A DNA stretch of 64,000 nucleotides, from assembly GCA_965213925.1 (NCBI GenBank), contig CBDCAM010000001.1:63738-127737 (forward strand). The letters are read 5' to 3'. How positions within the stretch are numbered: position 1 is the stretch's first letter; each line of letters opens with the position of its first letter. This stretch comes from Trueperaceae bacterium. GTDB taxonomy: Bacteria; Deinococcota; Deinococci; Deinococcales; Trueperaceae. The notes under the pieces were generated by a model that was given only the letters and a program-made list of their open reading frames with translations, searched no databases and was not told where the DNA came from. This document shows, in pieces, positions 22,909-58,368 of the stretch. The translations under genes and the position numbers were made by a program.

Positions 22909-23844
22909 CTAGACCGGCTCCTCACTAAAGAGCACCTCGAGCTCCGAAAGGAGTTTCTCCGCCCGCTTTTTGGACTTACCCTCTAGCCGCTCGAGCTTCC
23001 TTGGTGTGAGACTTCGCCTTAGCCGCGCTAGCCTCTCCGTCATCGGGTTGGCCGTCACCGCCCCATGTACCTTCACCTCCTGCTTCAGCTCAGCGAGACT
23101 CAGGTTTTCGGATAGCGCTCGCGCCAACAGGGCATTCCGCGCCTCATCGTCCCTCACCTTGGCGAGTTCGCGCGCCTTGGTGTGGTGGAGCCGTCCCAAG
23201 CGGACCGCCTCGAGCACATCCCCCGGCAGTTTCAGAAGAGGCAGGCGGTGGGTGTAAAAAGAGCCCGGAGTGAGGCGTCCCAGGAGCGCGAAAAGTACCT
23301 CAACCTCCTCCCGCTCCTCCCTGGAAACAGCGCTGTTTCCAGCGTCGTCGAGGGTGCCGCTCCTCCCTCGCCCCTCGTCGTAGAGCTGGCGAATGATGGT
23401 AATCACATCCTCAGTGGGCTTCCCCAGCCGCGCGCCGAGGAGGCGCAACACCGCGTCAGTCTCCTCTACCGGGTTCAGGTCCTCGCGCTGGAGGTTTTCT
23501 AGCAAGGCGAGTTCGAGCGCCTCCTCACCAGTCAACTCGCGGACCACAGCGGGCACCTCCTCGAGCCCTGCTAAGGTTGCCGCGCGGTAGCGCCGCTCCC
23601 CGGCCACGAGTTCGAAGGTTCCGCCAGGCAGCGGGCGCACGAGCAGAGGCTGCAGCACTCCGCGCTCCCTTATGGAGGCGGCGAGACTCTGGAGCTCCGT
23701 CTCGCCGAAGTAGCTGCGGGGCTGGTCCGGATTGGCCCGTATCTGCGAAAGCGGCACCATTTCCCCTGCGGCAGCTGGGGCCTCACCGAAGAGGGTGTCG
23801 AGCGCCTTGAGCTGACCGCCGTAAGGCTTCTCCCCTTTTTTCAT
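22909..23844 (-). CDS. parB: ParB/Spo0J partition protein
   Basis: NPDQPR, GVLQPLLVRP, AGERRYRA, ENLQREDLNPVEE. Confidence 0.95.
   Translation of the reverse strand: MKKGEKPYGGQLKALDTLFGEAPAAAGEMVPLSQIRANPDQPRSYFGETELQSLAASIRERGVLQPLLVRPLPGGTFELVAGERRYRAATLAGLEEVPAVVRELTGEEALELALLENLQREDLNPVEETDAVLRLLGARLGKPTEDVITIIRQLYDEGRGRSGTLDDAGNSAVSREEREEVEVLFALLGRLTPGSFYTHRLPLLKLPGDVLEAVRLGRLHHTKARELAKVRDDEARNALLARALSENLSLAELKQEVKVHGAVTANPMTERLARLRRSLTPRKLERLEGKSKKRAEKLLSELEVLFSEEPV
23321..23342. promoter_or_regulatory. Candidate parS inside parB
   Basis: Perfect 22-bp palindrome CTGGAAACAGCGCTGTTTCCAG. Confidence 0.55.
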
Positions 23845-24602
23845 ATGGGAACGCCTACAAGCCCCCCCGCGATACGGTCGAGAACTCCAACCGCCGGGTG
23901 TCTGGGATCGTAAATAGCCAGCGGTAGCCGCGCCTCGGCTGCGTCGGCGAGCGCGGTAGACCGCGGGATCGGAGGGAACACGGTGGCGACGGAAGAAAGT
24001 TGTTCTGTGATGGCGGTGAGGGTGCGCTCGTCTTGTGAGTTACGCCCGTCGAACATTGTCGGTACGAAGCCCGCAACAGCGAGCGTGCGGTTAGGCCGTG
24101 CCCGCACTCGTGAGACGGTTCGCAGGAGCAGATCAGTTCCCTGGAATGCCTTGAACTGTGTCTGGATGGGGACAAGCACCGCCTGGGCAGCGACGAGTGA
24201 GATGTAGGTGAGAATGCCTAAACTCGGCGGGCAATCCACCAGCACCACGTCGAAATCCGCCGTAAGGGGCGCGAGCGCGTCCTTAAGGCGGAGGTCACGC
24301 ATGTCAGCCACAACCAGCTCGAGCTCAGCGGCGCTCAGGTTGATGTTCGAGGGCGCGAGTGACAGGCCGTGCAGGTCGTGCTGGAGCGGTAAGGGCGAGC
24401 CGTCCACCACCGCGTCATAAACTGTACGCTCCAGCTCGACAGGGTCGAGTCCCATGAAGAGCGTGAGCGAGGCCTGCGGGTCCATGTCGACGAGGAGCAC
24501 CCGCAGGCCTCGCTCGGCCAAGGCGTGGCCTAAGTTCATCACCAGCGTGGTCTTACCTACACCGCCCGCCTGATTGAACACCGTCACCACACGGGCGCCC
24601 AC
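23841..24602 (-). CDS. parA: ParA/Soj partition ATPase
   Basis: NQAGGVGKTT, VDMDPQAS, DCPPSLG; stop overlaps the parB start. Confidence 0.95.
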   Translation of the reverse strand: MGARVVTVFNQAGGVGKTTLVMNLGHALAERGLRVLLVDMDPQASLTLFMGLDPVELERTVYDAVVDGSPLPLQHDLHGLSLAPSNINLSAAELELVVADMRDLRLKDALAPLTADFDVVLVDCPPSLGILTYISLVAAQAVLVPIQTQFKAFQGTDLLLRTVSRVRARPNRTLAVAGFVPTMFDGRNSQDERTLTAITEQLSSVATVFPPIPRSTALADAAEARLPLAIYDPRHPAVGVLDRIAGGLVGVPI

Positions 24603-24869
24603 TACCGCACCGCCGCTTCGATACCTGAGTTAAGGGCAGAGATCCAACTGAAGGGCTTGAGGCGCGTCGAAAAACTCGCAAAAGTTTCCTGGTATGCGGC
24701 AGACACGCGCCCTAAACCATAGAGCGCCGCTGAGGTAGTGTGTTGCATGAGCTAGTGTAGCATTTAGCGGCAAAGACGTAGGGGAGAGTTGATGAAGTTT
24801 TTGCACCTGGATCTCAAATTCTCTCCCACATCGAAAAATCCTTCCGGTCGCTTACATCCTTTATGAGCA

Positions 24870-25443
24870 GGGGAGATATGTCGGTCTGACACCTCGTAAA
24901 GTTAAAAGGGGAGAAATGTCGGTCTTCCTAATTGTGACTTAAGGATTTTTTATGGAGATGAAAAAACGCGTGAGGCACGCTCTGTATCCTTTGGCAACTG
25001 AGCTACAGCGGCAACAGCCCTAAATGAAAAGGGGGTAAAACCCGGTCAACGGCGGCATCATTTTTATTTTGTGCGTCGGTTCATGGGGTCTCCGGAACGC
25101 GATTAACACCTAAGGCCGGGAATTCTCCCTTTTTCAAGGTGGCTCTGCGTGTTCACTACCTCCTTGATATGTAACGACCTAATTGCAGGTGTTGAAGGAA
25201 TCTTAAAAATCCAGCACCATAGAAGAGTCTTTGATGATGTTTTACATACTTTAAATCTTTGTTCTTTTCTCGATGTCAGAAGGATCGTCCCACACGCATT
25301 TCCCACGCACTACTAAGGGAGAAAACCCGGTGACTACAGGGAGGCTTCCCGGCCTTGATGGGGAGCAATCTCGGCTTTGCCGGAGGAAAATGACGGGTTC
25401 GAGCGCGTAAGATTCCGGTCTAAAAGGGGGTAAATGTCGGTCT
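24870..25443 (+). repeat. Iteron origin of replication (oriV)
   Basis: An 18-mer like GGGGAGAAATGTCGGTCT occurs at 24870, 24908 and 25031, inverted at 25113, and as six copies at an exact 22-bp period (25316, 25338, 25360, 25382, 25404, 25426) beside an AT-rich tract, directly upstream of rep. Confidence 0.85.
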
Positions 25444-25540
25444 GCTTAGCAACCGAAGTGGGGATATGGCGAGTTTGAGTCCTTAATTACAAACGGTGAA
25501 GAGGAAAATGCTTGAACCGACTCCCGCTTTAGGTTAAACT

Positions 25541-26956
25541 TTGTTTACCGTCGGAGGAAAAGCCGTGGCTAGTTCCCAGGTTGGTACTAAACTCGAGCGA
25601 ATCACACAGAGTAATGACCTCGCGCGCGCCGCCCAGGATCTTGACTTAAATGAAAAACGCCTGATTTTATATACCATCGCCCAGATTAAGCGGGGTGATA
25701 AAGAGCTGTTGCGTCACCGCTTCTATCTCAGCGACCTCGCGCGTATCTACGGCACCAACCGCCATGACATCTATAAGCTCGCCAACGACATCACAACCAG
25801 CCTTTTAAGACGCGTCATCTACATCGAAACCGGTCAAGGCTGGAAAAAGTTTCAGTGGACCACCCTTGCAGAGTATGTAGACGGTGCTAGCAGCAAAAAT
25901 GGTGCTTACGTCGACGTCAGGCTCAACCAGGAACTCGAGCCCTACCTCATCGAGCTCAGCGAGCGATTTAACAGCATTCCGCTTGACGAAGCCCTCGACA
26001 TACCCAGCTTCAATAGCTTGAGGCTTTTTGAACTCTTGTGGCACGACTCGCACGCGGGCCACAATACGGTGGTCGAGTACCTACTCGACGACCTTAAGGT
26101 CCGCCTCGGTTTGAGAGAGATCCGCGGCAAATGGGAAAAATACAAGTCTTTCAAAGATTTCCGCACTGTGCTGGATAAAGCTCGAGAAGACATGGCCGAG
26201 TTCACCTCCCTCCGCATGTCTTATAAACCCGTTCGGAGCGGTCGCAAGTACACCCGCCTGCGCTTCATCATCGAACGCTCCGCCCCCGCCACCAGCAAGC
26301 CAAAAAGCCCCCCCACCTTAGAGCCTACGCAGCTCGCCGAGCACCAGCTCCTCGCCCGAGAGCTCGAGGCAGCGGGCTTCACCCAAAACCCCTTCGATAC
26401 CATCGAGCGCTACGGCCCGGACGTGGTGGCGCGAGTGCTCAAGAAAGCCAGAGCGGCCGAACGCCGCGCGAACTTCACCAAAAGCCCCATCCAAAACCTC
26501 GGCGGGCTGATCACCTGGATGCTGCGGAGCGGGGTAGGGGAGGGCGCGGACGAGGAGGCCGAAGCGAAAGTTGGCGACGGCACGCTTAGTGAGAGCGACG
26601 TCAACACCTACGCCGAAACCCTGCGCGACGCCTACGCCGCGGCTCGCGCCGAGCACCTCGAGGCGTACTGGCAAGCTCTAAACGATGAAGAGCAGACCGA
26701 GCTGCATGACATCATGAAGGTCGTGCTCGACCGCCACACGCTGTCGCTTCTTGGCAAAGCCGACTGGCGCGGTCTTGTCTACGAAACCGCGCGTAACCGG
26801 GCGCTCATCATCCAGGGCCTTGTCGAACTACCGGAGGACCTTAACTCTATCGCGGGCTACCTCGAGAAGCACTTTACTTTCGACGTGAGCGAGCGCGAGC
26901 GTGAGCGCATCATTAGCGCCACTATCGCACTCGAGGGTGGGGAAAGCACTTACTGA
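25541..26956 (+). CDS. Plasmid replication initiator, Rep_3/RepB family
   Basis: QSNDLARA..DL...EKRLI, L.PYLIEL..RF, SLRLFELL, Y..F..F...LDKA..D, GRK...L.F; iterons upstream. Confidence 0.88.
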   Translation: MFTVGGKAVASSQVGTKLERITQSNDLARAAQDLDLNEKRLILYTIAQIKRGDKELLRHRFYLSDLARIYGTNRHDIYKLANDITTSLLRRVIYIETGQGWKKFQWTTLAEYVDGASSKNGAYVDVRLNQELEPYLIELSERFNSIPLDEALDIPSFNSLRLFELLWHDSHAGHNTVVEYLLDDLKVRLGLREIRGKWEKYKSFKDFRTVLDKAREDMAEFTSLRMSYKPVRSGRKYTRLRFIIERSAPATSKPKSPPTLEPTQLAEHQLLARELEAAGFTQNPFDTIERYGPDVVARVLKKARAAERRANFTKSPIQNLGGLITWMLRSGVGEGADEEAEAKVGDGTLSESDVNTYAETLRDAYAAARAEHLEAYWQALNDEEQTELHDIMKVVLDRHTLSLLGKADWRGLVYETARNRALIIQGLVELPEDLNSIAGYLEKHFTFDVSERERERIISATIALEGGESTY

Positions 26957-29257: not shown

Positions 29258-29725
29258 TCACTGGTGAGACGTTGATGCCTCGATAAGCTCGAGCGCCTCT
29301 TCCAGAACTTCGTCTCGACCCTCACGCACACCCTCGAGGGTGTGCTCAACCGGCACCGTGGGCCGAATACCGATGAGGTGGTGCTGCGAGCCGTCATGCT
29401 TGATGACGCGCATCCCCGTCCACCGGACCGTGTAGTCGCCGGGGAGGGTAAAGGGGTTCACGTTGCCGTTGGCCCCCGCCGTCGGTCCTCCGACGATGTC
29501 TCCAAGCTTGTAATATTCCACGATGCCCATGGCGCTCTCGGCGTAGGAGATGGCGCGCGCGTCGGTGAGGAAAACAATCTTGCCGGTGAAATATGGGGCC
29601 TTGGGAGGAAGCGTCCAGCGACCCGAGGTGTCGTAGCCAGCTAGGTTCAGCCCGTCCGGGTAGATGATCTCCGGCACCTCCCAGTGCGCCGAGCGTAAGG
29701 GCTTTTGCGTGAGGTAGCGCAGCAC
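29258..29725 (-). pseudogene. S41 peptidase C-terminal fragment
   Basis: AISYAE, VGGPTAGANGN, GIRPTVPV, GRDEVLE.A; N-terminal domains absent. Confidence 0.75.
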
Positions 29726-30821
29726 CTCATGGTTTTAGAGGCACATAGAAGGATAGGATCCGCTAACGGCCGATGTTTCTCCAAGCCGCACCGACTCCGC
29801 ACCGCCTATGAAGTTATGTGAAGTTATGCCTTGGAGCAGTTTTTCAGGTGCCGCCTGCACGAGAGCTTGGAGGCTTAGGGCTGACGCTTTGACCACCATG
29901 CCCGGCCCGACCATAAACCCGACCCCCTGCCTGTTTATGCTTGTGGAGAAAAGCTGCTTATCTCGGGCGTTACTCGAGGGGTCGCACTGGCTGTGAGGGT
30001 CGTCGGCAAAAGAACCGGGGGGAAGGACTTAGGGGTCCGGCGAGGCTCGCGCGCCCGCCTCGAGACCTTCAAAGCCGTGGCGCGGGGCCTGGCGGGACGA
30101 AAATGGCCCAAGCGAGAAGCGCAAAAAGCCGCCGATAAAGGCAGAAGAAGCGGGACCAAAAGACGCGTGAAGAGGCGGGTAAAGGATCGGGTTTTCCCTC
30201 TTTTGCTAAGAAAACGCGCGCGAAAAGCGATATTTGAGTTGCATTTTGAGCTCCGCGAAGAGCAGCTCGGGCGTGGATCGAGGGGTGTGTTGGAAGTGAT
30301 AAGAGGGTAAAAAAGTAGCCAAAAAGAGGACGCAATGACTAACTATTGACATAGTCTTGACCGAAGAAAAGTCCGAAACCTGTGGCACTCGGCGAGCGAA
30401 AGGGGCGTGAATCGAGGTGTCCCGATGTACTAAAATTCGGAGTGTATGTCATAGAAAGAGCTGCCCTAAGGAGGTCTATATACACCATGAGAAGAGATGA
30501 AAGGCGCAGATCTAAGCTTGCGCGGCGGAGGTAAAGGTGAGAGAACGCACGAGCCGGGAGGCGCGCGGCCGCAGCCCTCTCAAGCCGCGTTAAACTCCCC
30601 TGCCGGTCTTCAGGCCGGGACTTTGCGCGCCGGGCTTCAGGTTCGCCTCCGAAGTCACACCTTCGTCGAAACTAGGGGTTAGCCGTCCGGGGTGACCGGA
30701 TCTCCCTTACCGCCTCTGGTGGTGCGCCGGAGGACAAAGGGTCAAGAACCCCTAATCACCCCCGGCCGGTTTGGGAACCCCAAGCTGCCTGGACCCGAAA
30801 GGCAGAACCCGGTGAGCGTAG

Positions 30822-31334
30822 GCTCGAGCAGTAAACGCCGCGGCTTGAAGCCAACTCGGCTAGCCTTGCCCATGGAGCAAAAGTCCTGCCAGGCCGACGC
30901 ACGTGGAATGGCAAGGCCGACTCTTAAGGAGCGGAGAAAAGCCTTTATTAAGCCAAAATGAAGACCACGGCGGCCTACAGCGAAGAGGGTTTTAGGCCGG
31001 AAGGGTCCGGGCCGTGGGGTTTTGAACTCCCTTTTCCTTACCATTTAGGGTTGGGCGGTGTTTTCTCTCATAATTGAAATTTGTGCGTCTAGCAAACAAC
31101 CATTTAGGGTTTTAGGAAACCGTTTCTCATTCACCTTTAATAATCTTACCATTTGGGGTTCTCGCGTCTGAGACAGTGATACCCCAAATGGTGTGCGAAT
31201 AGTGTACGTAAGTTCTTTTCTACCATTTGGGGTTGGGGCGGGCTCAGCGGGCGCCCTCTTCAAGCCCACTCCCACCGATTCCATACAACAAAAACGCCGG
31301 GTTGCTTTATGAAAAAACTGAGAGAGATTTGAGC
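30822..31334. repeat. Duplicated non-coding module, copy 1 (five ACCATTTRKGGT boxes)
   Basis: Aligns with 31888-32402 at offset 1066-1068. Boxes at 31040, 31099, 31148, 31181 (inverted) and 31222. Confidence 0.88.
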
Positions 31335-31887
31335 ATGGCGAGTATTTCTTGCGCCTCCACCATCCGGGGGTAGATAGGTACGACGAGGCGGGGGTAGCGC
31401 GTTATTTCGGGGTAGTGTGACGTCGAGACTCGTAAGACGCGTCTTCGAACTGTCACGCCCCACTGCCTTGCCTTACACTGCTTCTATGCCCGTAGAACGC
31501 GCCGCCATGACGTCACCCTTTCCCGAGGGCTTCCAGGGGACCTGGGACGCGTTTCCCGGTCTAGCGGATAAGCCCCGGCTCCTCCTGGGCTACCGCCTGA
31601 CCTGGAAGGATGCACAAGCAACGCGTAAGGGGAGCCCGCTTTTTTATCCTGTAAAGTCTTGAGCTTGTGCGTCCTCTAGTAGCTGGCGACAAACGTCGTG
31701 ATGGGTTCTGAAACGGACACCGAAAGTTTCTGCTGCCTCATACTACAGAGCACACCACGGATTCGGAGCCGCCTTCCGGGGTTCTCCCGAGTTCCGTTGC
31801 GCCTGTGCGGGAGCCGGGGCCGCGAGGAAAGACGCCCCAAAGGTCCGCGATAGGGAGTGCGGGCGCGGCCGTTAAGGCCGAGGTGGT

Positions 31888-32402
31888 GCTCGAGCCGTAG
31901 ACGCTAGGGCCTAAAGTCGGCTTGGCCAACCTCGTTCACGGGGCACAAGCCTTGGAACCGGACCACCACGCTAACGACATCAAATCCTGTTCGTATATGG
32001 CGGGGAAAGCATTTATTAAGCCTAGATGAAGAGTCTTGTGGCCCACTATGAAAAGAGTTCCAAAGCCGTAAAGGCCTAAATCTGAGCTTTTCGGCTCTCT
32101 TTTCCTTACCATTTGGGGTTGGGCGGTGTTTCCTCTCATAATCAGAGTTTGCGCGTCCAGCAAACAACCATTTGTGGTTTTAGGAAACTCCCTTTCATCT
32201 CTTTTTAATAATCTTACCATTTGTGGTTCTAGCGTCTGGGACGGTGATACCACAAATGGTCTGGGCATAGTGTACATAAGTTCTTTTCTACCATTTGGGG
32301 TTGAGGGGGTCCTCGGGGTCCGGCCGAGCCTCGAGGGAAGGCCGAGCCCTCAGGAGAAAAAACGCCGGGTTGTTTTATGAGTTTTCTGAGGGGGGCTCGA
32401 GC
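31888..32402. repeat. Duplicated non-coding module, copy 2
   Basis: Boxes at 32108, 32167, 32216, 32249 (inverted) and 32290, with the same spacing as copy 1. Confidence 0.88.
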
Positions 32403-32557
32403 TTCTCGGGGGCAGGGAAGGAGGGGTCAAGGCGGGCTGAAACGAACCCGGGGTGCTGGTGGCGGGGGCCTATAAAAGATTGGGTGGCCAGGGAGCTCGG
32501 GGCGAGGCGAAGGCGAAAGCGCCCGTGCGGGCGCAGGGGCTAGGGAAAGGAGATCTT

Positions 32558-32827
32558 ATGTACGCCAAAAGATGGAAGCTCGGGGAACGTCGGCCATTCG
32601 TCCACCTCGCCGCGGCCTCGGGGAGGGAAGAGCGTTACTGCGTTCAGCTGGTCTGGTCGCCGGGCTTAGGGCTGAGGCTCAAGGACGCGCCCTGGGGCAA
32701 GGAGGAGCTGGAGGAGCTCGCGGGCGAGATAGAGAGGGCCGGGATCATCAATATAGAGCGCTGGGAAAAGTTCTTCTTGGGGAACCCGCGCGACAAAAAG
32801 CGGTTCAGCGTGACCTTCTCGGACTAG
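32558..32827 (+). CDS. Hypothetical protein (89 aa)
   Basis: AAAGGAG RBS 6 nt before the ATG; backbone-like codon usage; stop lies 7 bp before the octamer array. Confidence 0.6.
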   Translation: MYAKRWKLGERRPFVHLAAASGREERYCVQLVWSPGLGLRLKDAPWGKEELEELAGEIERAGIINIERWEKFFLGNPRDKKRFSVTFSD

Positions 32828-32834
32828 GCAAGGA

Positions 32835-33346
32835 TGTACTGATGCGGGGGTGTGAGAGTGCGCTTTTGTGAAAGTGCGTCCTTGCGCCCCTGTGGAACCG
32901 CATTGTTGTAAGGATGCGTTGATGCGCTGCTGTTTAGGTGTGACGTTGCGCGAGTGCGTTGATGCGTGAGTGCATTGATGCGCGAGTGCGTTGATGCGTT
33001 GTTGTGCGAGCATGACATTGTACGAATGCGTTGTTGCGCAAGTGCGTTGATGCGTTGCTGTATGAGCGTGACACTGTGCGAATGCGTTGTTGTGCCGATG
33101 CGATGATGCGCTTCTGTGACACTGAGGTGTTGGGCTGCTGTGGCGCTGGGGTGCGGAGTTGTTGCGCAGATGCGTTAGTGCGGGGTTGCGTTAGTGTGTT
33201 GCTGCAGCACTGTGGTGCTGTGGATTTTTATCGCTGCGGCGCTGTGGTGCTGTAGAGATGTGCTACTGCAAAGTTGTGGTCCTGTACTTATGTGGGACTA
33301 TGGTGGCGCGGTGATGTGCTGATGTAGAGCTGTGTTCATGTGCGGA
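32835..33346 (+). repeat. Phased array of 64 degenerate octamers (TGYR-NNNN), centromere-like
   Basis: Read in 8-bp register, 57 of 64 units begin with TG and there is no indel over 512 bp. The array ends 25 bp before a parA-like start. Confidence 0.92.
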
Positions 33347-33371
33347 GGGCCGGGAAGAGAGGTCGAGCGAA

Positions 33372-33880
33372 GTGAAGATCATCGCGGTGGTGAGCGGCAA
33401 GGGCGGCGTCGGGAAGACAACCCTGAGCGTTACGCTGGCGGACTACTTCGCGCGTTTCGAGGGAGAGAAGACTGTGCTCGTCAATACCGACCCCCAGAAA
33501 TTGACGGACGCCTGGGTCGCGGGCGGCGAGGGCGGCGAGTTCGGCTTCGAGCTCGACACGACCGCGGACAGCTGTAAACCGGCTCGTCAAGTGCTTGCCG
33601 GAACTCGCCGCGAACGGCTACCAGACCATCATCGTCGACACCAGCCCGCGGCGGGAGTCAAACCTTTTCGCCGCGGTCACCAACGTGGCCGACTTCATTG
33701 TGGTCCCCTCGGGCCAGGGGGAGCTCGACCTCGACTCGGTGATAGCCACCATCGGCGAGGTGGTCCGGCCCTCGGGGCAACCCTTCGGGGTGGTTTTGAC
33801 CAACGTGAGGCTCGAGCAGAAGTGGTAGGAAGACGCGAAGAACATCCCATCGAGACTCCTTGAGAATCACGCCTTCTAGG
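33372..33880 (+). pseudogene. Second ParA-family ATPase (short ParF/type Ib-like), frameshifted and truncated
   Basis: SGKGGVGKTT and TDPQ; frameshift at ~33571 into YQTIIVDTSP...ADFIVVP...DL; TAG at 33826-33828. Confidence 0.85.
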
Positions 33881-34229
33881 GCAAATTTCCCTTCGACGCC
33901 GACGACAGCCCTTCCAACGCCTCCTTTGGCAGCTCGAGCATCTCGCTCACGCTCATCCCTAAGGCGTCGGCTATCTTGAGCAGCGTCGCCAGCGTGGGGT
34001 CGCTCTTGCCCTGCTCGACGAAGCCCAGGTGCGCCCGGTGCAGGTGCGCCCTGGCCGCCAGCTCGTCCTGGTTCAAGCCCCGCTCTTTACGCAAACGTTT
34101 AAGGCGCTCGGCCACCAGCGCCCGGTAGGCCGCCTCCCTCATCTTGAGCCTCTCCCTGACCGGGTCCGCACGCTTCTCGGACCCCCCGGCTTCCCCCCGC
34201 TCTCCTTTCGTCTCGTCACGCTCCGCCAT
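33876..34229 (-). CDS. XRE family HTH regulator
   Basis: LKRLRKERGLNQDELA...VEQG..DPTL.TLLKIADAL. Confidence 0.9.
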   Translation of the reverse strand: MAERDETKGERGEAGGSEKRADPVRERLKMREAAYRALVAERLKRLRKERGLNQDELAARAHLHRAHLGFVEQGKSDPTLATLLKIADALGMSVSEMLELPKEALEGLSSASKGNLP

Positions 34230-34258
34230 CTCTTCATCATGGCGTTGTGCTATAAAGA

Positions 34259-35113
34259 GTGCGACTAGTAAAAACTAGTTTCGTTTTGGCGAATCGAGAT
34301 GAGATGAGAAAGATGAGAAAGAAAGGGCAGGGTCGGCCGGATGACCCGCGTGGGCTGAGGGATGTGATGAGGGGGCTCGAGGGCGCCGGGGCGGACGGGG
34401 GAGAGGAACGCGGCAGGGGAGAGGGCGCCGTGCTCGCGCGGGCGCTGGCGGAGCTCGCGCGGGCGGGCGAGGGCGAAGGCTGGCGCTCGGCGGGCGAGGC
34501 GCGGGTCCCCTGGCGCGAGCGGCTGCGCGAGCTTCTGGGCGAGGCGGGCGTGGGGCTCGAGCCCGAGCGGGAGGCGGCGGGACTGCGCGAGGCGCTGGTC
34601 GCGCGCTGGGGAAGCCTCGAGGGGGAGGACCAAAGGGCGGCGGCCAGGCTCTGGTGGTACGCGCTGCTCAGGCTAAGGGCGGGGGCGTACGCGGATAAGA
34701 CCCCCCTGCCCGAGCGGGTGCGGGAGGAGGCGCTGGGGCTGGCGTTGGGCTCAGGAACTTTAAGGGACGCTTCCGGACCCGAGGTGCTGGGCGACCCCGG
34801 CCGCGGCCCCTTCTGTCACGGCTGGGTAAAGCTGGGCGAGCGGCTCGAGGAGGCGTACTTAGAGCTCAGCCTCATCAAACTCGACCCCGCTTTCAAGACC
34901 TTCCGCCATCCCTTGGACGAGCCCGCGCTGGGCTGGGCCGGACGGGGGCTGCTTGCTTACCTCGAGCGCCGAGAGGTCCCCGTGGCCGCGCGCGAGCTCG
35001 TCGCCGCGGGTGCGGAAGACGGAGGCACGCTGCGGCTGCTGCGGCGGCTTTACGCCGAAGGTTGGCTGCGCGCGCGTGCGCAGGGCATGGCGGCGCCTGG
35101 GCTCGAGGTCTAG
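34259..35113 (+). CDS. Uncharacterised RLWWY-motif protein, paralogue 1 (true start may be ATG ~34303-34312)
   Basis: Shares ALVARWG...RAAARLWWY and a wHTH-like C-terminus with two downstream ORFs. Confidence 0.75.
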   Translation: MRLVKTSFVLANRDEMRKMRKKGQGRPDDPRGLRDVMRGLEGAGADGGEERGRGEGAVLARALAELARAGEGEGWRSAGEARVPWRERLRELLGEAGVGLEPEREAAGLREALVARWGSLEGEDQRAAARLWWYALLRLRAGAYADKTPLPERVREEALGLALGSGTLRDASGPEVLGDPGRGPFCHGWVKLGERLEEAYLELSLIKLDPAFKTFRHPLDEPALGWAGRGLLAYLERREVPVAARELVAAGAEDGGTLRLLRRLYAEGWLRARAQGMAAPGLEV

Positions 35114-35118
35114 CGGAC

Positions 35119-35907
35119 ATGTTCCGGCGGGTGCTGGGTAGGCGAAAAAAGAGGGTAGAGCGCGAGGCGAGCGAGCGGGACATAGGAGACAGAGGAGAGG
35201 TGGCTGTGGGTGAGGCGGAGGAGAGCGTGACGGAGGAAAAGGTAAACGAACTGGGGGCGGCTGTGGGCGAGCGACCTCTCGAGGAGGGTCGGGTAGGCGA
35301 GGCGCGGGTCCTGCCCGACGAGGCGGCGGAGGCTCTTTCGGTGAGTCCTTCGGGCCTGCGGCGCTACGCGGCGGACTACGAGGCGGCGTTCGACGAGCTG
35401 CCGCGGTATGAGGGGCGGCGGGTGTTCAGCACAGAAGCGCTCGAGCGCTTGAGAGCCGCCCAGGCGCTGCTGCGCGCCAAGCAAGCACCAAGCCTCAAGC
35501 AGGCCTTGCTCAGGGTGAAAGACGAGCCGGGGCTGGTGACGGCGGCGGGCACGGCGGAAGCGGAGGGCGAGGCGAGCGCGCCGGAGGACGCGGACATGGC
35601 CGGTGCTATAAGCGAGACGGAAGGCCCGAGCATGGCGGACGCTTATGGCGGAGCGGAAGCCCCGGCCCAGCAGGTCGGCCCCTCGTCCGAGACGCGACTC
35701 GAGCCAGACGACACGGGAGCGAAGGAGGTGCCAGCAGGGAGCCTGCAGGTCACGCTGCACCTCACTAAGGGCGGCTGGCGGCTCGTGGCCGAGGGCGGAG
35801 CGGGCGAGGGCGAGAGGCTCCTGGCGCTCCTCGAGCCACTCGTGCGCGCGGCGGGCGTGGCCCGGAGCGACGGAAGCGAAGGTGGCTGTGAGGGGGAGGT
35901 CTTATGA
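35119..35907 (+). CDS. Protein with MerR-like HTH
   Basis: EAAEALSVSPSGLRRYA..YE..F..LP...GRRVFS.EALERL; acidic linker. Confidence 0.7.
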   Translation: MFRRVLGRRKKRVEREASERDIGDRGEVAVGEAEESVTEEKVNELGAAVGERPLEEGRVGEARVLPDEAAEALSVSPSGLRRYAADYEAAFDELPRYEGRRVFSTEALERLRAAQALLRAKQAPSLKQALLRVKDEPGLVTAAGTAEAEGEASAPEDADMAGAISETEGPSMADAYGGAEAPAQQVGPSSETRLEPDDTGAKEVPAGSLQVTLHLTKGGWRLVAEGGAGEGERLLALLEPLVRAAGVARSDGSEGGCEGEVL

Positions 35908-36527
35908 GCCGCGACCCGGAAACGGCCCGCGCGCCGAGGCGAACGTGAGGCTCGAGGACGGGCTGGTCCGGCTTAGCACCGAGGAAAAGGAGAAATTTGC
36001 GCTCATGTGCGCGCTCCTGGGCCGCGGGACTCGCGAGGTCGAGCTCAGCGTGCAGAATTTGGAGGAGGCACTCGTGGCGCGTTACGGAGCCGCGCGAAGC
36101 GGATGCGCCCAGGAGCGTGCTGAGGCTCTGGTGGTACGGGCTGGTGCGCGCCAGCGGACCTCTGCGCGCCGCGCCTCATGACGATGCGGCGCGGGCCGCG
36201 TCGCTCCTCTTCCTGGGACACCTCAACGCCCACGCGGGCGCGGGGGGCTGGCGGGTCTTGAGCAAAGGTCTCGAGTTCGCGGGCGTCGAACTCAGTCACG
36301 CGCGGCTCACCGAGGCGGGCAAGCGGGCGCTCGTGAAGTCCGACCTCGCGCCGCGGGAGCGGGCGCTGCTGGACGTCCTGGGGCACAAGCGACGGGTGCC
36401 GGTGCTCGAGTTCATAGACGGGGAGGACGACCCTATCGCGACGCTGCTCACGCTGCGGCGGCGCGAGGCTCAAGGCCATATAGAGCTCTCCGGCGACGCC
36501 TTCGTGGCGCTCGGCCTGGCGCTTTAG
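35904..36527 (+). pseudogene. RLWWY-motif protein, paralogue 2, frameshifted at ~36086 (and probably near the 5' end)
   Basis: LEEALVARY lies in one frame and EPREADAPRSVLRLWWY...GDAFVALGLAL in the next. Confidence 0.72.
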
Positions 36528-36545
36528 GGGCGCCCGCCTGTGCGG

Positions 36546-36845
36546 CTACTCCTTTGTGGACCTGAACACCCGCCTCTGGTCCCGCTCGAGCGAATCCTCC
36601 AGCTCCTCCTCGCTCGGCTCGCGGGTCAGCTCTTCAAGATGTGCCCCCAACGCCTCCGCGAGCTTTAGCAGGGTGTCGAGCGTCGGGTTGAACGCGCCGC
36701 GCCCCCCCTCGAACTCCTGGTAGCGCCGCAGCGATAACCCAGAACGTTCTGCCACGTCGTCCTGCCGCAGGTTCCGCTCGAGCCGCAGCCTCCGCAGCCG
36801 CCAGCGGACTACGCGCTTGTAGGCGGCGTGAGCTTCATTGGGCAC
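36546..36845 (-). CDS. XRE family HTH regulator
   Basis: LRRLRLERNLRQDDVAERSGLS.R.YQ.FE.G...NPTL.TLLKLAEALG. Confidence 0.9.
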   Translation of the reverse strand: MPNEAHAAYKRVVRWRLRRLRLERNLRQDDVAERSGLSLRRYQEFEGGRGAFNPTLDTLLKLAEALGAHLEELTREPSEEELEDSLERDQRRVFRSTKE

Positions 36846-37219
36846 CCGCCCATCATGGCGAGCCCCCCTTCAACTTTGTACGCCCATATAGTGCGTGTTA
36901 GTATAGAGACAGGTCTGAACTTCGTGGAGGTGAGATGGGACATGGTGTGAAGGCGTTGAGAAAACGGGCTATGGAGTCTGAAGCGTGAGCCGGAAAGTTG
37001 AGGGCGGCGAGAGAGCAAGCCCCGCAAGGGGCGCTCGCAAGAGATTGGCGGTCAACGAAAGGATGAAGGCGTGGGTCGAGCGTGAGCCGTGCCCGGACCG
37101 GCTGCGTTTTCTTTTGGGTCCGGGCGAGGTGGGAGGTGCGGACGGGGCGTTCGACGCCGAGGGGGAGATGCAGGCGGAGCGGCCCGCCAAGGTGGCGGAG
37201 GAACGGACGGGGGCAGGGG

Positions 37220-37963
37220 GTGAGTAGGCGCTTGGGGCGAAACGAGGAGCTTGACACCGGCGCGTCCCGCGGCAGGCGGGTCGGCCAGCTCGGGTGGCGC
37301 TCGCTCTTGCTTACGCTGCTTTTCCCTCTGGCGGCTTACGGCCAGCCCGTCGACTTCGCCGCCGCCTTTAGCCCCTGGCCCCCGCCCGGCTGGCCCGGAG
37401 GGGCGTCCGCCGAGGTGCGCGTGACCGCCCTCGGTGAGGGGGAGGAGCTGGTCGAGTTCGCCCGCTTCCCCGTCACGGAGGGCCGGGTGCATTTCGTGCT
37501 CGAGCCTGCTACGCCCCGCGCGCTGGAAGGCCTGCTCGCGCCGTTCGACCCGGCGGCTTACGCTCTGTGCGACGCCGCGCTGCCCGTGGTCAGCCCGGGA
37601 GACGCCCGCGTCGCTTACGCGCTGCCCCTGCTCTACGCCGACGGCGAGCCCTGGGGCATCGTCACCAGCGAAGGCGAGAGGAGCACCGGCTTTCTCTCCT
37701 TCGAGCTGACGAGCTTCGGGGGCATCCTCTACGCCGAGCGCGAGGCGCGCGTGGCCGGGGGCGGGAGCTGCCCGGCGGAAGGGGGCTCGGAGGAGGTGCG
37801 CTACGCGCTCGAGCTCCGGGGGGGACCCAACTTGACCGTCGCCACGGCCAGCGCGGGCCTGTCAGGCGTGACGACAATCGTCACGACCGAGCCGCTCCTC
37901 GAAGGACCCCTGGGGGTCCTACCAGGAACGCGGGAGCAGCTTGTCGAGGCCCTCGGGTTCTGA
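37220..37963 (+). CDS. Secreted hypothetical protein
   Basis: Signal-like WRSLLLTLLFPLAAYG followed by a beta-rich body; start uncertain. Confidence 0.6.
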   Translation: MSRRLGRNEELDTGASRGRRVGQLGWRSLLLTLLFPLAAYGQPVDFAAAFSPWPPPGWPGGASAEVRVTALGEGEELVEFARFPVTEGRVHFVLEPATPRALEGLLAPFDPAAYALCDAALPVVSPGDARVAYALPLLYADGEPWGIVTSEGERSTGFLSFELTSFGGILYAEREARVAGGGSCPAEGGSEEVRYALELRGGPNLTVATASAGLSGVTTIVTTEPLLEGPLGVLPGTREQLVEALGF

Positions 37964-38366
37964 GCCGTGGGCGGCGCTCGTGTGAAGGGGGACGGCTATG
38001 GGGACAGCTAGAGTGGGCCGGGGCCGGGGCGGTCGGGGAGCATTTCTCACCCGCGCTCCCTGGGCTCGCCTTCTGGGGAAAGGGGCGCGAGCGTGCTCGA
38101 GCTGAGCGGGACGCCCGACCGGGCGCGGGTGCTGGGCGGCACCCTCGACGAGGCGGAGCGGCGCGTGTTGCGGCTCTTTCTGGGGGCCGCGCTCGCCGGG
38201 CTGAGCGAAAGCTTGCGGGAGGGGCTGGAGGACGCCCTGCGGCGGGGGGCGCTGTGAGTCACGGCCCCTGCGCCCGTGGCGCCGTCGTCTTGCCGGCGCG
38301 CCGCCCTTCTCGGGTTGACGCCCCACAGGTTCACAGGTTGCCGGAAAAGAGAAGAAAGGAAGGAGC

Positions 38367-39460
38367 ATGATGCAGAAGTCGAGCAAGAGAGTGGTCGTCG
38401 GGGAGCATACCCGTCCCCCCGAGGTAGCGGGTAACGAAGCCTATGCCAGGAGGGCATTCGCTATGTCCGCCCTCCTCGCGCTCTGCTTCTTGTTGAGCGC
38501 GTCCCGAGCGCCGCACCCGTCACCCCAGACGCCGACACCGGCTCCCTGCAGGTGACGGTCCTGGGGCTGCCGGAGGACGCCGAGGCCAACGTCACCGTCA
38601 CCGGCCCTGACGACTACCAAGAAGAGGTGGAGAGGAGCAGGACGCTCACCGGCCTCCCCACAGGGCGCTACACCGTCACCGTCGGCAGCGTGGTGTTTGC
38701 AGGCGAGACCTTCCCCGGCTCTCTACCCGGCAGCCGCGCGATGCGAGAGTTAGACGTGACCCGGCAGGCGGTGAGCGAGGTGGCGGTGTCTTATGCCTCG
38801 GTGGGCGTCGTCGGGGCGGGCGAGATCGCCCCCGGCGTGACCCGCAGCGGCACGCTCTCGGTGGGCGCTTTTCACGAGTACACCTTCGGGGGCGTAGAGG
38901 GCGTGCCCTTAGCCTTTGACTTTGAAGGAACAAGAGAAGGCGCCGCCGCCACCTACCTGGTAAGCATCTACGCTGGCGACCCACAGACGCCCTTGTACAG
39001 CCAACGCTTCGGCACCCTCAACGCCGACCCCATCGTCGGCTTTACCCCGCCCTCGAGTGGTGGCTACGTCTTGCGCATTAGCACCGAGCGGGGCGAGCTC
39101 AACTACACCGTCACCGCGAGCTACTTGAGCGGCACGCCCGAGGAGCGAGGGACGCTTACGCGCTTGGAAGCGGGCGAGCTCGTCCGGGGGGCGGTGACGG
39201 CGGACTCAATCGACTCCTATCTCTTTAGCGCAGCGGCGAACGAAATGGTGACTTTCGTGTTCGACTACGAGGAAGGCGGCGGCATCTACGACGTGGAGAT
39301 TCTTAGCGCCGCGGGGGGTGAGGCGCTCTACAGCGAGCGCTACGGCACCGCCCTCCTTCCGCCCGAGATCGCCTTCACCCCGCCCGAGACGGGTGACTAC
39401 CTCCTGCGGGTGAGGGGCGTGGACAAGGTTATCCGCTACAGCTTAGTGCTGCGGAAGTAG
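38367..39460 (+). pseudogene. Surface/lipoprotein with PPC-like beta-sandwich repeats; signal peptide out of frame (~38500)
   Basis: GSLQVTVLGLP..A.V.VTGP and two FTPP..G.Y.LR repeats. The signal LLALCFLLSA is in another frame. Confidence 0.6.
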
Positions 39461-39523
39461 GGGTATGGGTAATTCGTATCAGACCCTTCCGCCGCATCAA
39501 CAAGGTTACTGGAGGCGCCACAC

Positions 39524-40183
39524 ATGACCCCACCCAACTCTTCCGGTTTAACAAAAGGCATGGCGGAGGTAGATGAAAAGCAGCTGGCGCTAATGAACGC
39601 GCTGCTCACCCTGCTGGCCCCAAGGACCAACGTCTCGCTCGAGGCGGAGATAAAAGGAATGGAGGAAATGCTCTTGACGCGTTATGGGGCACTCGAGGCG
39701 GATGATTACAGCGACGTTCACCGCTACCGCGCCGCCGTGCGCCTCTGGTGGTACGCCTTTAGCGGCGCGGGCGGCGCGCCGGGCGCTGTACCCGAGTCCG
39801 AGGTGGTCAGGGCCGAGGCCGTAAAGTTTTTAGACGGTGTCGGCGACTACCTGGGCCAACACGACGCGGGAAGCTGGACGGGCTTGAGCCGGGCGCTCCG
39901 GCTCGCCTGGATCGAACGCGGTCAAGCGAAGTTCAACGCTGGCAACCCCGGTGCGCAGTGGCAGTCGTATCTGGAGGACCCCGAGCTCGACTGGGGGGAG
40001 CGGGGGCTGCTGGCCTTTTTGGAGTACCACAAGGGGCGAATGGTGGCGGCGCGCGAACTCGTAGACCGGAACCGGGAAGGTAAGTTCAAGATCCTCACGC
40101 TGCGGGCGCTCAAGGGACTCAACGAAAGAGGTTACGTGGGTCTTTTCGGCGACGCGTCCTTTGCTTTGGGCTTAAAGCTCTAG
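39524..40183 (+). CDS. RLWWY-motif protein, paralogue 3 (intact)
   Basis: GGAGG RBS; LLTRYG...RAAVRLWWY...ERGLLAFLE...VAARELV...GDASFALGLKL. Confidence 0.8.
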   Translation: MTPPNSSGLTKGMAEVDEKQLALMNALLTLLAPRTNVSLEAEIKGMEEMLLTRYGALEADDYSDVHRYRAAVRLWWYAFSGAGGAPGAVPESEVVRAEAVKFLDGVGDYLGQHDAGSWTGLSRALRLAWIERGQAKFNAGNPGAQWQSYLEDPELDWGERGLLAFLEYHKGRMVAARELVDRNREGKFKILTLRALKGLNERGYVGLFGDASFALGLKL

Positions 40184-40225
40184 CCGGGGGTCGAGAGGCT
40201 GCTGAGGCCAGCAGAGGGGAAGCGA

Positions 40226-40564
40226 GTGAAAAACGTTTTCTTTAACGGCGAGTCGGATGACCTTGTCCACGTCGAGGGCTTTGGCGGCCTCTACCATGAG
40301 GTCGACTGCTACGGCAGCGGGGTCCACTTAGCCACCTTCAACGTCCGCGCGGGAGATGAGGGCGTCGCGGTTCACGCCCTCTACGACGGCAGTTGGGGCT
40401 TCGCGCTCACGAGTCTGAACGAAGCCGACGACTTCCGCTCGCTCCCCGCCTGGCCTTTTAAACGCAGCTTCGGGGACAGGTGCGCTTATTCTGAGACGCT
40501 CAAGCTGGTGGTGCCGGACGATGCGACGATTGAGAGAGTGGTCCAGCAGGGTGAGCTGCATTAG
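40226..40564 (+). CDS. Hypothetical protein (phage/plasmid-type)
   Basis: 112 aa with RBS; G.SDDLV.VEG start motif. Confidence 0.6.
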   Translation: MKNVFFNGESDDLVHVEGFGGLYHEVDCYGSGVHLATFNVRAGDEGVAVHALYDGSWGFALTSLNEADDFRSLPAWPFKRSFGDRCAYSETLKLVVPDDATIERVVQQGELH

Positions 40565-40751
40565 CGTTATGAACAGGGCAAAAGCGTGAGCCCGAAGACC
40601 GTCGGGCTGCTCGCCGTGCTCGCCCAACTTTGCGGAGAACGCTGCTCGAGGCGCGGGTGCATTCTTTATAAATGGTCGTGCCGAGGTGACGTTCACCCGC
40701 CGCCATTCGCCAAACAAAGATACCTGCCGGGGCGGGCATTCTGTACCAAGA

Positions 40752-41080: not shown

Positions 41081-41686
41081 TCAGGGGCGCGAGAAACACG
41101 CTTTGTCCCCTCTCCCGGAGTAAGGGTTAGCGGCCTCGAGCCGAGCACCGTGACCGAGCCACACGAGAAGGAGTAGCGTCATGTCCCTGATTTGCACGGG
41201 GAAACCCTTGCTGATGGCGAAGGCTTTAGCTTGCCGGAATGCTTCTTGGATGCCTTCGGAGTCATCCTCGAGCCTCTCCGGGCGGGGGAGTTCGGGCAAG
41301 GGCTCGCCGTCGGTCTGGGCGATGTCGAAGACGCGGGCGGTGCGGAAACCCACAACCTTTCTTTCGTCGTCACCTCCTTCGCCCTCTACCTTTTTCAGGA
41401 TGGGAGCCAAGATGGCGAGGCTCGTCTCCCCTTTGCGGACCTGGCGGCCCAGTTCTTGCCAGCGCCTGTAGCCAGCGACTAAGGTGGCGGTGGGGCACTG
41501 GAGGTAGATGAGGTAGGCGTTCCTGAAAGAGTAGGAATGGAACTTGCTCCTGAACTTGAGCGCCTCTTTCCAGCTCTCGGAGTCGAGCAGGTTCGTGACG
41601 CCGTCGTAGAGGAGCTCGAGGGCTTTATTGGGCTTGTCTTGGGGAGCGGGTGAAGAGTGGTCTACAGCCTGAGGCGTGTGGTGCAT
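41081..41686 (-). pseudogene. ArdC-like ssDNA-binding N-terminal domain, C-terminally truncated
   Basis: FHSYSFRNAYLIYLQCP.AT.VAGYRRWQELGRQVRKGE...VFDIAQTDG; no HExxH metallopeptidase part. Confidence 0.85.
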
Positions 41687-41863: not shown

Positions 41864-42232
41864 ATGGTCAACCTCCTCGAGCACACCCTGGTGAGCGCCC
41901 ACAACCCGCGGACGGGGCGTCTCGACGCGCTTAAGCTCGCCCACACCCTCGCCGTGAGCGCCCCGCAGATGGCGCGGATGGTGGGCTACACCCCGGCGGG
42001 CCTGCGCAAGAACCCCGACTCGGAGCGGCTGCAGGCGAGGCTCCACGAGCTCGTCGGGCTCACCGGGCGTCTCAGGGCGCTCTTCGACGGCAACCTCTCC
42101 CACGCCCTCATCTGGCTCAAGGCGCCCCACCCGGACTTAGCTGGCAAGACTCCGTTGAGTTGCTTGGAAGAAGGGCACGCCGACGCGGTCGAGCTGCTCG
42201 TCTACGCGATGGAGACCGGGCAGCCGCTCTAG
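41864..42232 (+). CDS. Xre/MbcA/ParS-type antitoxin
   Basis: A.IWLKAPHPDLAGKTPL. Confidence 0.88.
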   Translation: MVNLLEHTLVSAHNPRTGRLDALKLAHTLAVSAPQMARMVGYTPAGLRKNPDSERLQARLHELVGLTGRLRALFDGNLSHALIWLKAPHPDLAGKTPLSCLEEGHADAVELLVYAMETGQPL

Positions 42233-42804
42233 TGCTCGAGGGGGATGCGCTATTGGGTGCGCTCGCCCGGGTGCCGGTCCGTCCCGCTCGGGGGGTGAGC
42301 TACCGGGTCATCCCCGCCCGCTTTCACCTCACCGCCCTCTCCGCCATCGGGGCTTACCAACGCGGCGGGCGCTACAACCCGCGCGGAAGGCTCGAAGCGC
42401 TCTACCTCTCGGAGAGCCCCATCGTGGCGCTCCAGGAGGTCGAGGCGGTGCGGGGGACGGCAACCCAGCTTGTGGGGCTCACCTTCAGCCCCAAAACGCT
42501 CCTCAGCGTCGAGTATGACCTCGTCCGGCTTTTAGACCTTACCGACGAGGGGGTGCAGCGGGCGCTCGAGGCGAACCTTGAGGAATTGACCGCGCCCTGG
42601 GTGCTCGAGCAGTCGCGCTTGGGCAGCGCCCCCACCCAGCGGCTCGGGCGGGCAGTCGCCGAGGCGGGCATCGAGGCGCTGCGCGCGCCTTCGGCGAAGA
42701 ATCCGAAGGCCGCTAACCTGGTCATCTATCCCACCGTTCTTCAGCCCGGCTCGTCCCTGCGGGTGTTCGACGACTCGGGCTTCATCGACGCGAGGCTTCC
42801 TTAG
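42232..42804 (+). CDS. RES-domain toxin (intact)
   Basis: YR, GGRYNP, ALYLSE...AL.E, LLDLT, TQ.LG, PSA...NLVIY. The GTG start overlaps the antitoxin stop. Confidence 0.9.
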   Translation: MLEGDALLGALARVPVRPARGVSYRVIPARFHLTALSAIGAYQRGGRYNPRGRLEALYLSESPIVALQEVEAVRGTATQLVGLTFSPKTLLSVEYDLVRLLDLTDEGVQRALEANLEELTAPWVLEQSRLGSAPTQRLGRAVAEAGIEALRAPSAKNPKAANLVIYPTVLQPGSSLRVFDDSGFIDARLP

Positions 42805-58346: not shown

Positions 58347-58368
58347 ATCAAGATGCAGTCGCGCCAGC

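Follow-up and report, generated by a model that had tools for sequence, protein, structure and literature searches.

An array of 64 octamers, 512 bp long, lies directly upstream of a decayed parA gene in a stretch of DNA from a Trueperaceae bacterium that was analysed over its whole length of 64 kb (the window). By analogy with described systems, the array is probably a parH-type centromere/operator lattice of a type Ib (ParF/ParG-class) plasmid partition locus, which is now orphaned. This reading rests on the geometry of the array, on its position and on related loci in other plasmids, and from these we infer protein binding, the fold of the binding protein, the stoichiometry of the complex and the inactivity of the array.

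The octamer array

The array and its limits are as follows.

32835-33346, plus strand: octamer array of 512 bp, with 64 phased octamers of consensus TGYR-NNRN; candidate centromere/operator lattice

Read in the 8-bp register from position 32835, 57 of the 64 octamers start with TG, as was counted in the original prediction, and "mostly TGYR" can be specified as 53 of 64. The boxes are predominantly TGCG (24) and TGTG (19), followed by TGTA (7), TGCA (3) and 11 others. Position by position, the box holds T in 59, G in 61, a pyrimidine in 60 and a purine in 63 of the 64 units (G in 51), with an information content of 1.55, 1.68, 0.66 and 1.19 bits for positions 1 to 4. Positions 5 to 8, the spacer, hold between 0.03 and 0.52 bits. 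The last four bases had been described as freely varying. This applies to most of the spacer, as the pairwise identity of the spacer tetramers is 0.31 vs. 0.257 for random sequence, but not to all of it: of the 64 units, 56 have a purine at position 7 and 31 have a T at position 6, the remaining spacer positions being approximately random. Overall, the spacer composition is C.21, T.27, G.31 and A.21, and the plus strand of the entire array is 38% G and 31% T.

Because the boxes are 72% identical and the spacers 31%, and because 56 of the 64 octamers are distinct (8 are duplicates), conservation sits on the boxes and on the register, not on whole units. The large number of distinct octamers also argues against an assembly artefact in which a simple repeat was collapsed or expanded. 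TG is conserved at 92-95% across the units, and substitutions at box positions 1 and 2 (5 and 3 of 64, respectively) are far fewer than at positions 3 or 4, which points to constraint on TG. The variants TGCG, TGTG, TGCA and TGTA are interlinked by transitions, and part of the Y/R degeneracy could be mutational.

The autocorrelation at lag 8, proposed earlier as a check, was computed against 1000 dinucleotide shuffles. The lag-8 identity of the array amounts to 0.486, compared to 0.290 +/- 0.022 for the shuffles (z 8.9), and is exceeded by the identity at lag 16 (0.552). The best-phase TG count is 57 in the array, whereas the shuffles reach a mean of 17.9 and a maximum of 25. Runs of four consecutive TGYR-NNNN units match the window 28 times, and all 28 matches lie inside the array, on the plus strand and in a single register; no such run occurs in 100 shuffles. 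Elsewhere in the 64-kb window, neither a second comparable tract nor secondary TGYR sites were found. The statement that the phase never slips is borne out by these matches and by the absence of indels across the 512 bp, as the register resumes unchanged after each of the seven non-TG units (units 9, 23, 30, 41, 50, 59 and 60). All units have the same orientation, except perhaps unit 9 (CGCA...), which is readable as a single inverted box. The parA-proximal third of the array is TGTG-rich and the middle is TGCG-rich. This zoning recalls a division into operator and centromere, without proving it.

Higher-order repeats lie in the core of the array.

32947-33122 (in a narrower delimitation, 32955-33122), plus strand: array core with 16-bp and 56-bp higher-order repeats, from Tandem Repeats Finder (TRF) and pairwise comparison

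The 56-bp repeat noticed earlier was recovered, with 42 of 56 positions shared between the copies at 33011-33066 and 33067-33122. TRF reports a period of 56 with 2.5 copies and 83% matches, as well as a 16-bp period, of the TGCGTTGA/TGCGCGAG type. Compared in pairs, the 56-bp copies differ at 14 and 17 positions. Part of the array grew through recent duplication in 8-bp multiples. Selection on the spacing of the array is plausible but not proven, because duplication in 8-bp multiples preserves the phase without selection. Coding capacity was considered as well and rejected, as an 8-bp period cannot hold a frame and the frames that do run through the array are all short and Cys-rich.

The decayed parA gene and its neighbours

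The array is flanked by the following genes.

32558-32827, plus strand: gene for an 89-amino-acid (89-aa) protein of a small conserved family, with a GGAG-type ribosome site 5-6 nt before the ATG
33372-33865, plus strand: parA pseudogene of the small (ParF-size) Walker type, from three-frame translation, tblastn, and Pfam and PDB matches
33876-34229, minus strand: XRE-family helix-turn-helix (HTH) gene, convergent and abutting the truncated parA (Pfam HTH_3, E 3.7e-15)

As originally described, the array fills the gap between the 89-aa gene, of which the stop codon (32825-32827) lies 8 bp before the array, and parA, of which the GTG start codon is at 33372. The observation that parA is broken holds too and can be traced to three lesions, located by tblastn of the ParAs of five relatives against the window. 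These ParAs align with 33372-33572 and then, in the +1 frame, with 33580-33864, which places a +1 frameshift between 33572 and 33580. They also align across an in-frame TAG at 33826-33828. Lastly, the homology stops near 33865, at approximately residue 155-159 of 211-228, and the 3' end of the gene is missing. The N-terminal piece starts with a P-loop (KGGVGKT) and matches Pfam CbiA/AAA_31. The best PDB sequence matches are ParAs of 206-214 aa: 3cwq (209 aa) matches both pieces and ParF, 4dzz (206 aa), matches the N-terminal piece (E 1.3e-4). Up to approximately residue 155-159, the gene is collinear with relatives of 194-228 aa, which fits a small ParA without an N-terminal DNA-binding domain.

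After parA, the G+C content rises from 0.58 to 0.70, and a high-G+C block begins at the XRE gene. Apparently, this block was acquired and took the place of the 3' end of the par operon. It extends from 33900 to 40700 and has 66-70% G+C compared to 55-60% in its neighbours. Among its products are two XRE regulators, a protein with a weak likeness to MerR and several proteins without Pfam match. An insertion that merely split the par operon was rejected, since neither the ParA C-terminus nor a partner protein has homology elsewhere in the window (tblastn; profile search against 1287 window frames). Two further features characterize a type Ib locus. The cluster of short repeats beside the operon is present by sequence, as the 64 octamers end 26 bp before parA. 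The small gene for a centromere-binding protein directly downstream of parA is absent; the XRE gene stands there. It had been remarked that no ParG-like gene is visible, and indeed none was detected by Pfam, tblastn or profile searches. In 122 frames of at least 40 aa between 29885 and 37960, there is no Pfam match to ParG or to the ribbon-helix-helix (RHH) fold, and only the ParA pieces and two XRE proteins were matched.

The 89-aa protein has four remote homologues with 38-46% identity in an exhaustive search, and a profile search extends the family to 19 members. Its AlphaFold2 model, based on 17 sequences, is predicted as a beta-sheet plus a helix with a predicted local distance difference test (pLDDT) score of 83; the single-sequence fold has a pLDDT of 44. 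The protein has no match in Pfam or PHROGs and no usable match in the Atlas, and a word-based search retrieved nothing but the protein itself. Foldseek against the PDB matched nothing (best E 0.69), and tblastn found no homologues in 72,556 plasmids.

Related small-ParA loci in other plasmids

The C-terminal ParA piece matches 31 plasmid records, with 34-48% identity among the 30 listed. They belong to Thermus (11), Corynebacterium (7), cyanobacteria (7) and other actinobacteria (6). The N-terminal piece has no tblastn match against plasmids at 1e-5. From the related small ParAs, 14 distinct plasmid loci were taken for comparison. The expectation that homologous parA loci carry phased arrays upstream holds for part of this set: 8-bp-phased arrays stand beside the par operon in 9 of the 14 loci.

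Thermus brockianus pTbrSNM4-1c: array of ~14 units
Thermus sp. pTCCB09: array of ~15 units
T. thermophilus pTthSNM1-7d: array of ~20 units, one gene from the operon
Corynebacterium jeikeium pCJ84: ~11 units, and a further two short arrays after the partner gene
Nostoc pNe_2 and pNPUN03: ~10-12 units each
Oscillatoria pOSCIL6304.01: 5-7 units, with another 6 downstream
Acaryochloris pREB8: 33 + 6 units by lag-8 score, in clusters over ~750 bp
Geminocystis pGM01: 48 units by lag-8 score, in clusters of about seven units over ~400 bp

In the locus sequences, these arrays extend over 2432-2543 (L001), 1425-1540 (L128), 760-918 (L129), 912-990 (L127), 1690-1789 (L136), 1743-1787 (L130), 960-1720 (L131), 1371-1754 (L132) and 2150-2262 (L126). 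In the Thermus, Corynebacterium, Nostoc and Oscillatoria plasmids, they end ~10-50 bp before the first gene of the operon. In the 12 scored loci, every remaining lag-8 segment falls either within the partner gene, where it codes for repeats, or immediately after this gene. No array was found by lag-8 score in the other 5 of the 14 loci, i.e., the unannotated pTT27 remnant, Protofrankia (of which the upstream region was checked across the origin of the record), Brachybacterium, Microbacterium and Kitasatospora. Brachybacterium has five TCG-ending units, recognized by eye only.

The Thermus and cyanobacterial arrays are built from the unit ACTCTGTA and its flipped form ACTTACAG, and the Corynebacterium units from ACGYT. 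ACTCTGTA/ACTTACAG contain both ACTC, the box of plasmid TP228, and TGTA, which fits TGYR. As a tie between these systems, this may serve as a lead only. The orthologous arrays of two Thermus plasmids differ by exactly one indel, of 8 bp, and by several flipped units. As this sole indel measures 8 bp, the Thermus lineage keeps the register while units come and go.

A small binding protein encoded downstream of parA had been expected in the homologues. A candidate gene is present in eight loci (Thermus, cyanobacteria and Brachybacterium), where the gene after parA belongs to one family of 116-297 aa, but Pfam and PDB searches lend no support to an RHH fold. The proteins of this partner family share a basic N-terminal tail, followed by a low-complexity linker that varies between them and by a conserved C-terminal module of ~60 residues, which reads from the alignment as strand-helix-helix and thus may have the RHH pattern. 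The partner in Corynebacterium (79 aa) has a weak match to RH3_dom (E 0.02). Thermus operons start with an HTH_17 gene of 67-70 aa, located between the array and parA. No description of octamer arrays in Thermus or cyanobacterial plasmids was found in the literature searched, which yielded only work on parABS-type systems and reviews.

A collection of genomes was additionally scanned for seven consecutive TGYRNNVN units, which yielded at least 122 stretches. Among the matches listed, the top-scoring stretches are simple 4- or 8-bp tandem repeats, and these repeats have 2-9 distinct units among 16-70. Against phages, blastn matched only a 43-bp segment of the P-loop region, and this match is noise.

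Plasmid context

The window is plasmid-like and mosaic. It contains a replicon with its own partition genes.

25541-26956: Rep3-family initiator gene

Upstream of this gene, at 24865-25448, four to five repeats of 21-28 bp and of the AAAAGGGG..AAATGTCGGTC type are present, which are probably the iterons of the plasmid origin. Beside the replicon lies an intact type Ia parA-parB pair (22909-24602, minus strand). The type Ia ParB is at most 50% identical to ParBs of Thermus and cyanobacterial plasmids, among the 12 matches listed, and no canonical chromosomal-type parS occurs in the window within 3 mismatches.

Several other elements were observed. Between 29800 and 32450, a region of 2.6 kb has no open reading frame (ORF) longer than 120 aa. 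Here, an element of 300-400 bp is present in two copies (30938-31334 and 32006-32402), which lie 1068 bp from each other and share 79% identity over 309 bp; it has no Rfam match and no third copy in the window. RES-domain genes, toxin-like by family name, are located at 20008-20379 and 42160-42804. The latter is preceded by an opposite-strand ORF of 124 aa and adjoins an ArdC-N-like gene (41081-41686). Transposase genes, with an rve integrase core or of the IS240-type DDE family, are located at 14831-15769, 17626-18342 and 58353-58823, the last one being a fragment. Sugar-utilisation operons are also present in the window.

Proposed working mechanism

In the proposed mechanism, one RHH-type dimer per TGYR box would insert its beta-ribbon into the major groove and read the box there. 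Neighbouring dimers would touch, such that boxes of ~5 bits are bound only cooperatively, and a coat of up to 64 dimers may be formed. Since a unit holds only ~5 bits, single boxes would not be specific, and specificity would come from the register and from the contacts between neighbours. This would explain why the register is the most conserved property of the array. An 8-bp pitch corresponds to ~274 degrees per dimer, and four dimers (32 bp) would thus span approximately three helical turns. The signals at lag 16 and lag 32, which are stronger, agree with this geometry. The coat would then recruit and stimulate the small ParA by means of the N-terminal tail of the partner protein. As the array overlaps the upstream region of parA, the coat may additionally repress the operon.

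The partner gene downstream of parA would have been removed as the high-G+C segment took over the 3' part of the operon. Because the operon is dead, its 3' part has been replaced and the plasmid keeps a separate type Ia parAB pair, the array is most likely a recently orphaned centromere. Its good condition is uninformative about present use, since parA has only three lesions.

Other signals in the array

As RNA, the plus strand of the array has a folding energy of -220.7 kcal/mol, with a z of -5.5 compared to dinucleotide shuffles. It beats 100 of 100 permutations of the octamer order (z -3.1) and 100 of 100 permutations of the spacers (z -2.8). For the minus strand, z is -0.6 against dinucleotide shuffles, its sole control. 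A consensus scan gave one further signal.

33202-33232, plus strand: terminator-like hairpin with a T-run behind it, located within the array and coinciding with the non-TG unit 50

The weight of this hairpin is weak, with three terminator-like sites in the region compared to 1.7 expected. No Rfam match was obtained over the whole window at gathering thresholds, nor for 29700-33400 at E up to 1. tRNA genes were not found, and no sigma-70-like promoter was detected within 32300-34400.

Alternative explanations

A number of observations weigh against a parH-type lattice. No gene for the binding protein was found: Pfam gives no match to ParG or RHH between 29885 and 37960, and the partner family has no match in the window. 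The partner family itself is RHH-like only as read from its alignment, and neither Pfam nor the PDB sequences match it significantly. Units of the relatives (ACTCTGTA/ACTTACAG, ACGYT...) are unlike TGYR-NNNN, and the loci without array include the two nearest ParAs by identity, i.e., those of Protofrankia (47.6%) and Brachybacterium (41.1%). A similar array was not retrieved: blastn of the array or the region against plasmids (PLSDB) gave no match, and none of the 121 loci among the genome-scan matches listed has a ParA within reach. The spacers have ~52% G+C, whereas those of TP228 are AT-rich in the available part of its description (PMC3130281). Finally, the plus strand folds better as RNA than its controls, and duplication in 8-bp multiples could account for part of the phase conservation.

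Some of the alternatives keep the array as a binding site. It might still be a working centromere or a titration site, with a binder encoded elsewhere on the contig or on a co-resident replicon, such that the plasmid hitchhikes on another type Ib system or competes with it through centromere incompatibility. TG kept in 57 of 64 units and the lack of indels over 512 bp, despite near-random spacers, are in favor of this, as is the fact that the window covers 64 kb of a contig of 127,737 bp, with 63.7 kb outside it. Moreover, parH of TP228 works with ParFG supplied from a foreign promoter, according to the accessible part of that study (PMC3130281). Such a trans-acting binder is nevertheless unlikely, as the plasmid has its own type Ia parAB and secondary TGYR sites are lacking elsewhere in the window; with only three lesions in parA, the array may have been orphaned too recently to show decay, and conservation then says little. 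The probability is equally low that the 64 boxes are kept by selection as a free-standing centromere without par genes of its own, which would capture the coating protein of another replicon or be coated by a new binder such as the 89-aa protein. That the 89-aa protein is a new kind of centromere-binding protein is, taken by itself, distinctly improbable. Its gene ends 8 bp before the array, its 19-member family is conserved, its confidently predicted fold has no solved match, and Thermus relatives carry a small DNA-binding gene (HTH_17) between array and parA. The protein, however, shows no motif for DNA binding, matches nothing in Pfam, PHROGs or the PDB and has nothing in common with known centromere-binding proteins, and the lack of homologues in 72,556 plasmids indicates that it is not a regular companion of ParA.

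Other alternatives assign the repeats a different origin or role. Iteron origins carry repeats of ~17-22 bp beside their own rep gene. The plasmid-like window with its Rep3-family initiator might suggest that the array serves replication, either as the iterons of an origin or as a site of copy-number control (handcuffing). This is extremely unlikely, since the Rep3 gene lies at a distance of 6 kb and is accompanied by 21-28-bp repeats of its own, units of 8 bp are far shorter than Rep3-type iterons, and no second rep gene adjoins the array. A functionless minisatellite, grown by slippage or unequal exchange of 8-, 16- and 56-bp blocks, would keep its phase through multiples of the unit, and both the higher-order repeats of 16 and 56 bp and the fact that simple 8-bp tandem repeats are common in bacteria, according to the genome scan, are compatible with it. 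It is improbable all the same, as 56 of 64 units are distinct and the spacers are near random (0.31 vs. 0.257) while TG is kept at 92-95%, whereas the repeats from the scan are near-identical; furthermore, the position of the array matches that in the ParA relatives. Lastly, the array may act as RNA. Being G/U-rich and highly structured, it would form the leader of parA, or the trailer of the 89-aa gene, and would regulate expression or offer an RNA-binding protein a site every 8 nt. The folding of the plus strand, which surpasses the dinucleotide, octamer-order and spacer controls while the minus strand does not stand out, and the terminator-like hairpin speak for such a role. It is very unlikely, however. 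UGCG and UUGA units are self-complementary via G-U pairs and neighbouring units are more alike, by which hairpins are favored and much of the effect is explained. Folding needs no strict 8-nt register, Rfam gives no match, and boxes in both orientations, in the relatives and in TP228 as far as the available text describes it (PMC3130281), point to recognition of double-stranded DNA.

Comparison with known systems

If the array is a centromere lattice, it represents the known parH design stretched threefold. Its boxes would be so degenerate (TG plus a pyrimidine-purine step) that recognition depends almost wholly on register and cooperativity, which would make it a natural test case for specificity from weak phased sites. 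It would also imply that a centromere can outlast its own partition genes, which bears on plasmid incompatibility and on the exchange of par loci. Should the array be a free-standing centromere, it would exceed in length all uninterrupted short-repeat protein tracks known from plasmid segregation, with ~170 nm of DNA and 64 dimers. Independently of the array itself, 8-bp-phased arrays are common to small-ParA plasmids of Thermus, cyanobacteria and Corynebacterium, many of which also share the partner family, and the thermophilic Thermus loci are an experimentally tractable relative of the TP228 system.

RHH proteins that bind short tandem repeats are known from different contexts. MetJ binds tandem met boxes as RHH dimers 8 bp apart, with contacts between the dimers. 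The 8-bp spacing is the same as in the array; MetJ differs in being a chromosomal repressor that acts on 2-5 boxes and has no role in partition. In the type Ib locus of pSM19035, RHH dimers of omega bind unspaced heptads, i.e., at a pitch of 7 bp. In pCXC100, RHH ParB dimers bind cooperatively to nine unspaced 9-bp repeats, in the available part of its description (PMC3074162). Both type Ib systems resemble the proposed lattice in the cooperative binding of RHH dimers to unspaced short direct repeats, and differ from it in their pitch of 9 or 7 bp and in having less than a dozen repeats per site, as far as described for pCXC100 in that part of the source.

The arrays of Thermus, cyanobacterial and Corynebacterium plasmids share the 8-bp phase and the position just upstream of the par operon with the array described here, and whole-unit indels are a common mode of evolution. 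Their operons are intact and include a conserved partner gene, and their ParAs are 34-39% identical to the one described here over the C-terminal piece. Unlike the units of the array, those of the relatives show good conservation at each of the 8 positions, and both orientations are found among them. The contiguous runs of the relatives have ~5-20 units, counted by eye. The designation of the array as a very long track of parH geometry is therefore supported for geometry and position, but long tracts are not unique, as the cyanobacterial ones reach ~40-50 octamers, although only as broken clusters.

TP228 provides the closest comparison. Upstream of its parFG genes, 20 degenerate ACTC boxes are separated by 4-bp AT-rich spacers, with 12 boxes in parH (11 direct, one inverted) and 8 in the OF operator, according to the accessible part of the report (PMC3130281). 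One ParG dimer binds per box and the site is coated cooperatively; with fewer boxes, both binding and partition become weaker (PMC3130281, same part). The original prediction had cited this precedent with the right box and spacer lengths and the right protein, but with about a dozen boxes. Within what this source describes, the likeness consists of a degenerate 4-bp box and a 4-bp spacer, hence an 8-bp pitch, upstream of a small Walker-type parA, with boxes that are mostly direct and occasionally inverted; by analogy, a cooperative coat of one dimer per box would be expected here. The box differs, being TGYR and not ACTC, and 64 boxes are contiguous here, compared to 20 in TP228 (12 + 8, with a gap of ~5 bp). 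In addition, no ParG-like gene was found in the window, parA is a pseudogene and the match to ParF is limited to the N-terminal piece. Judged from the sequences, the new elements would thus be the different box, approximately three times the number of TP228 boxes in one unbroken register, and the orphaned state.

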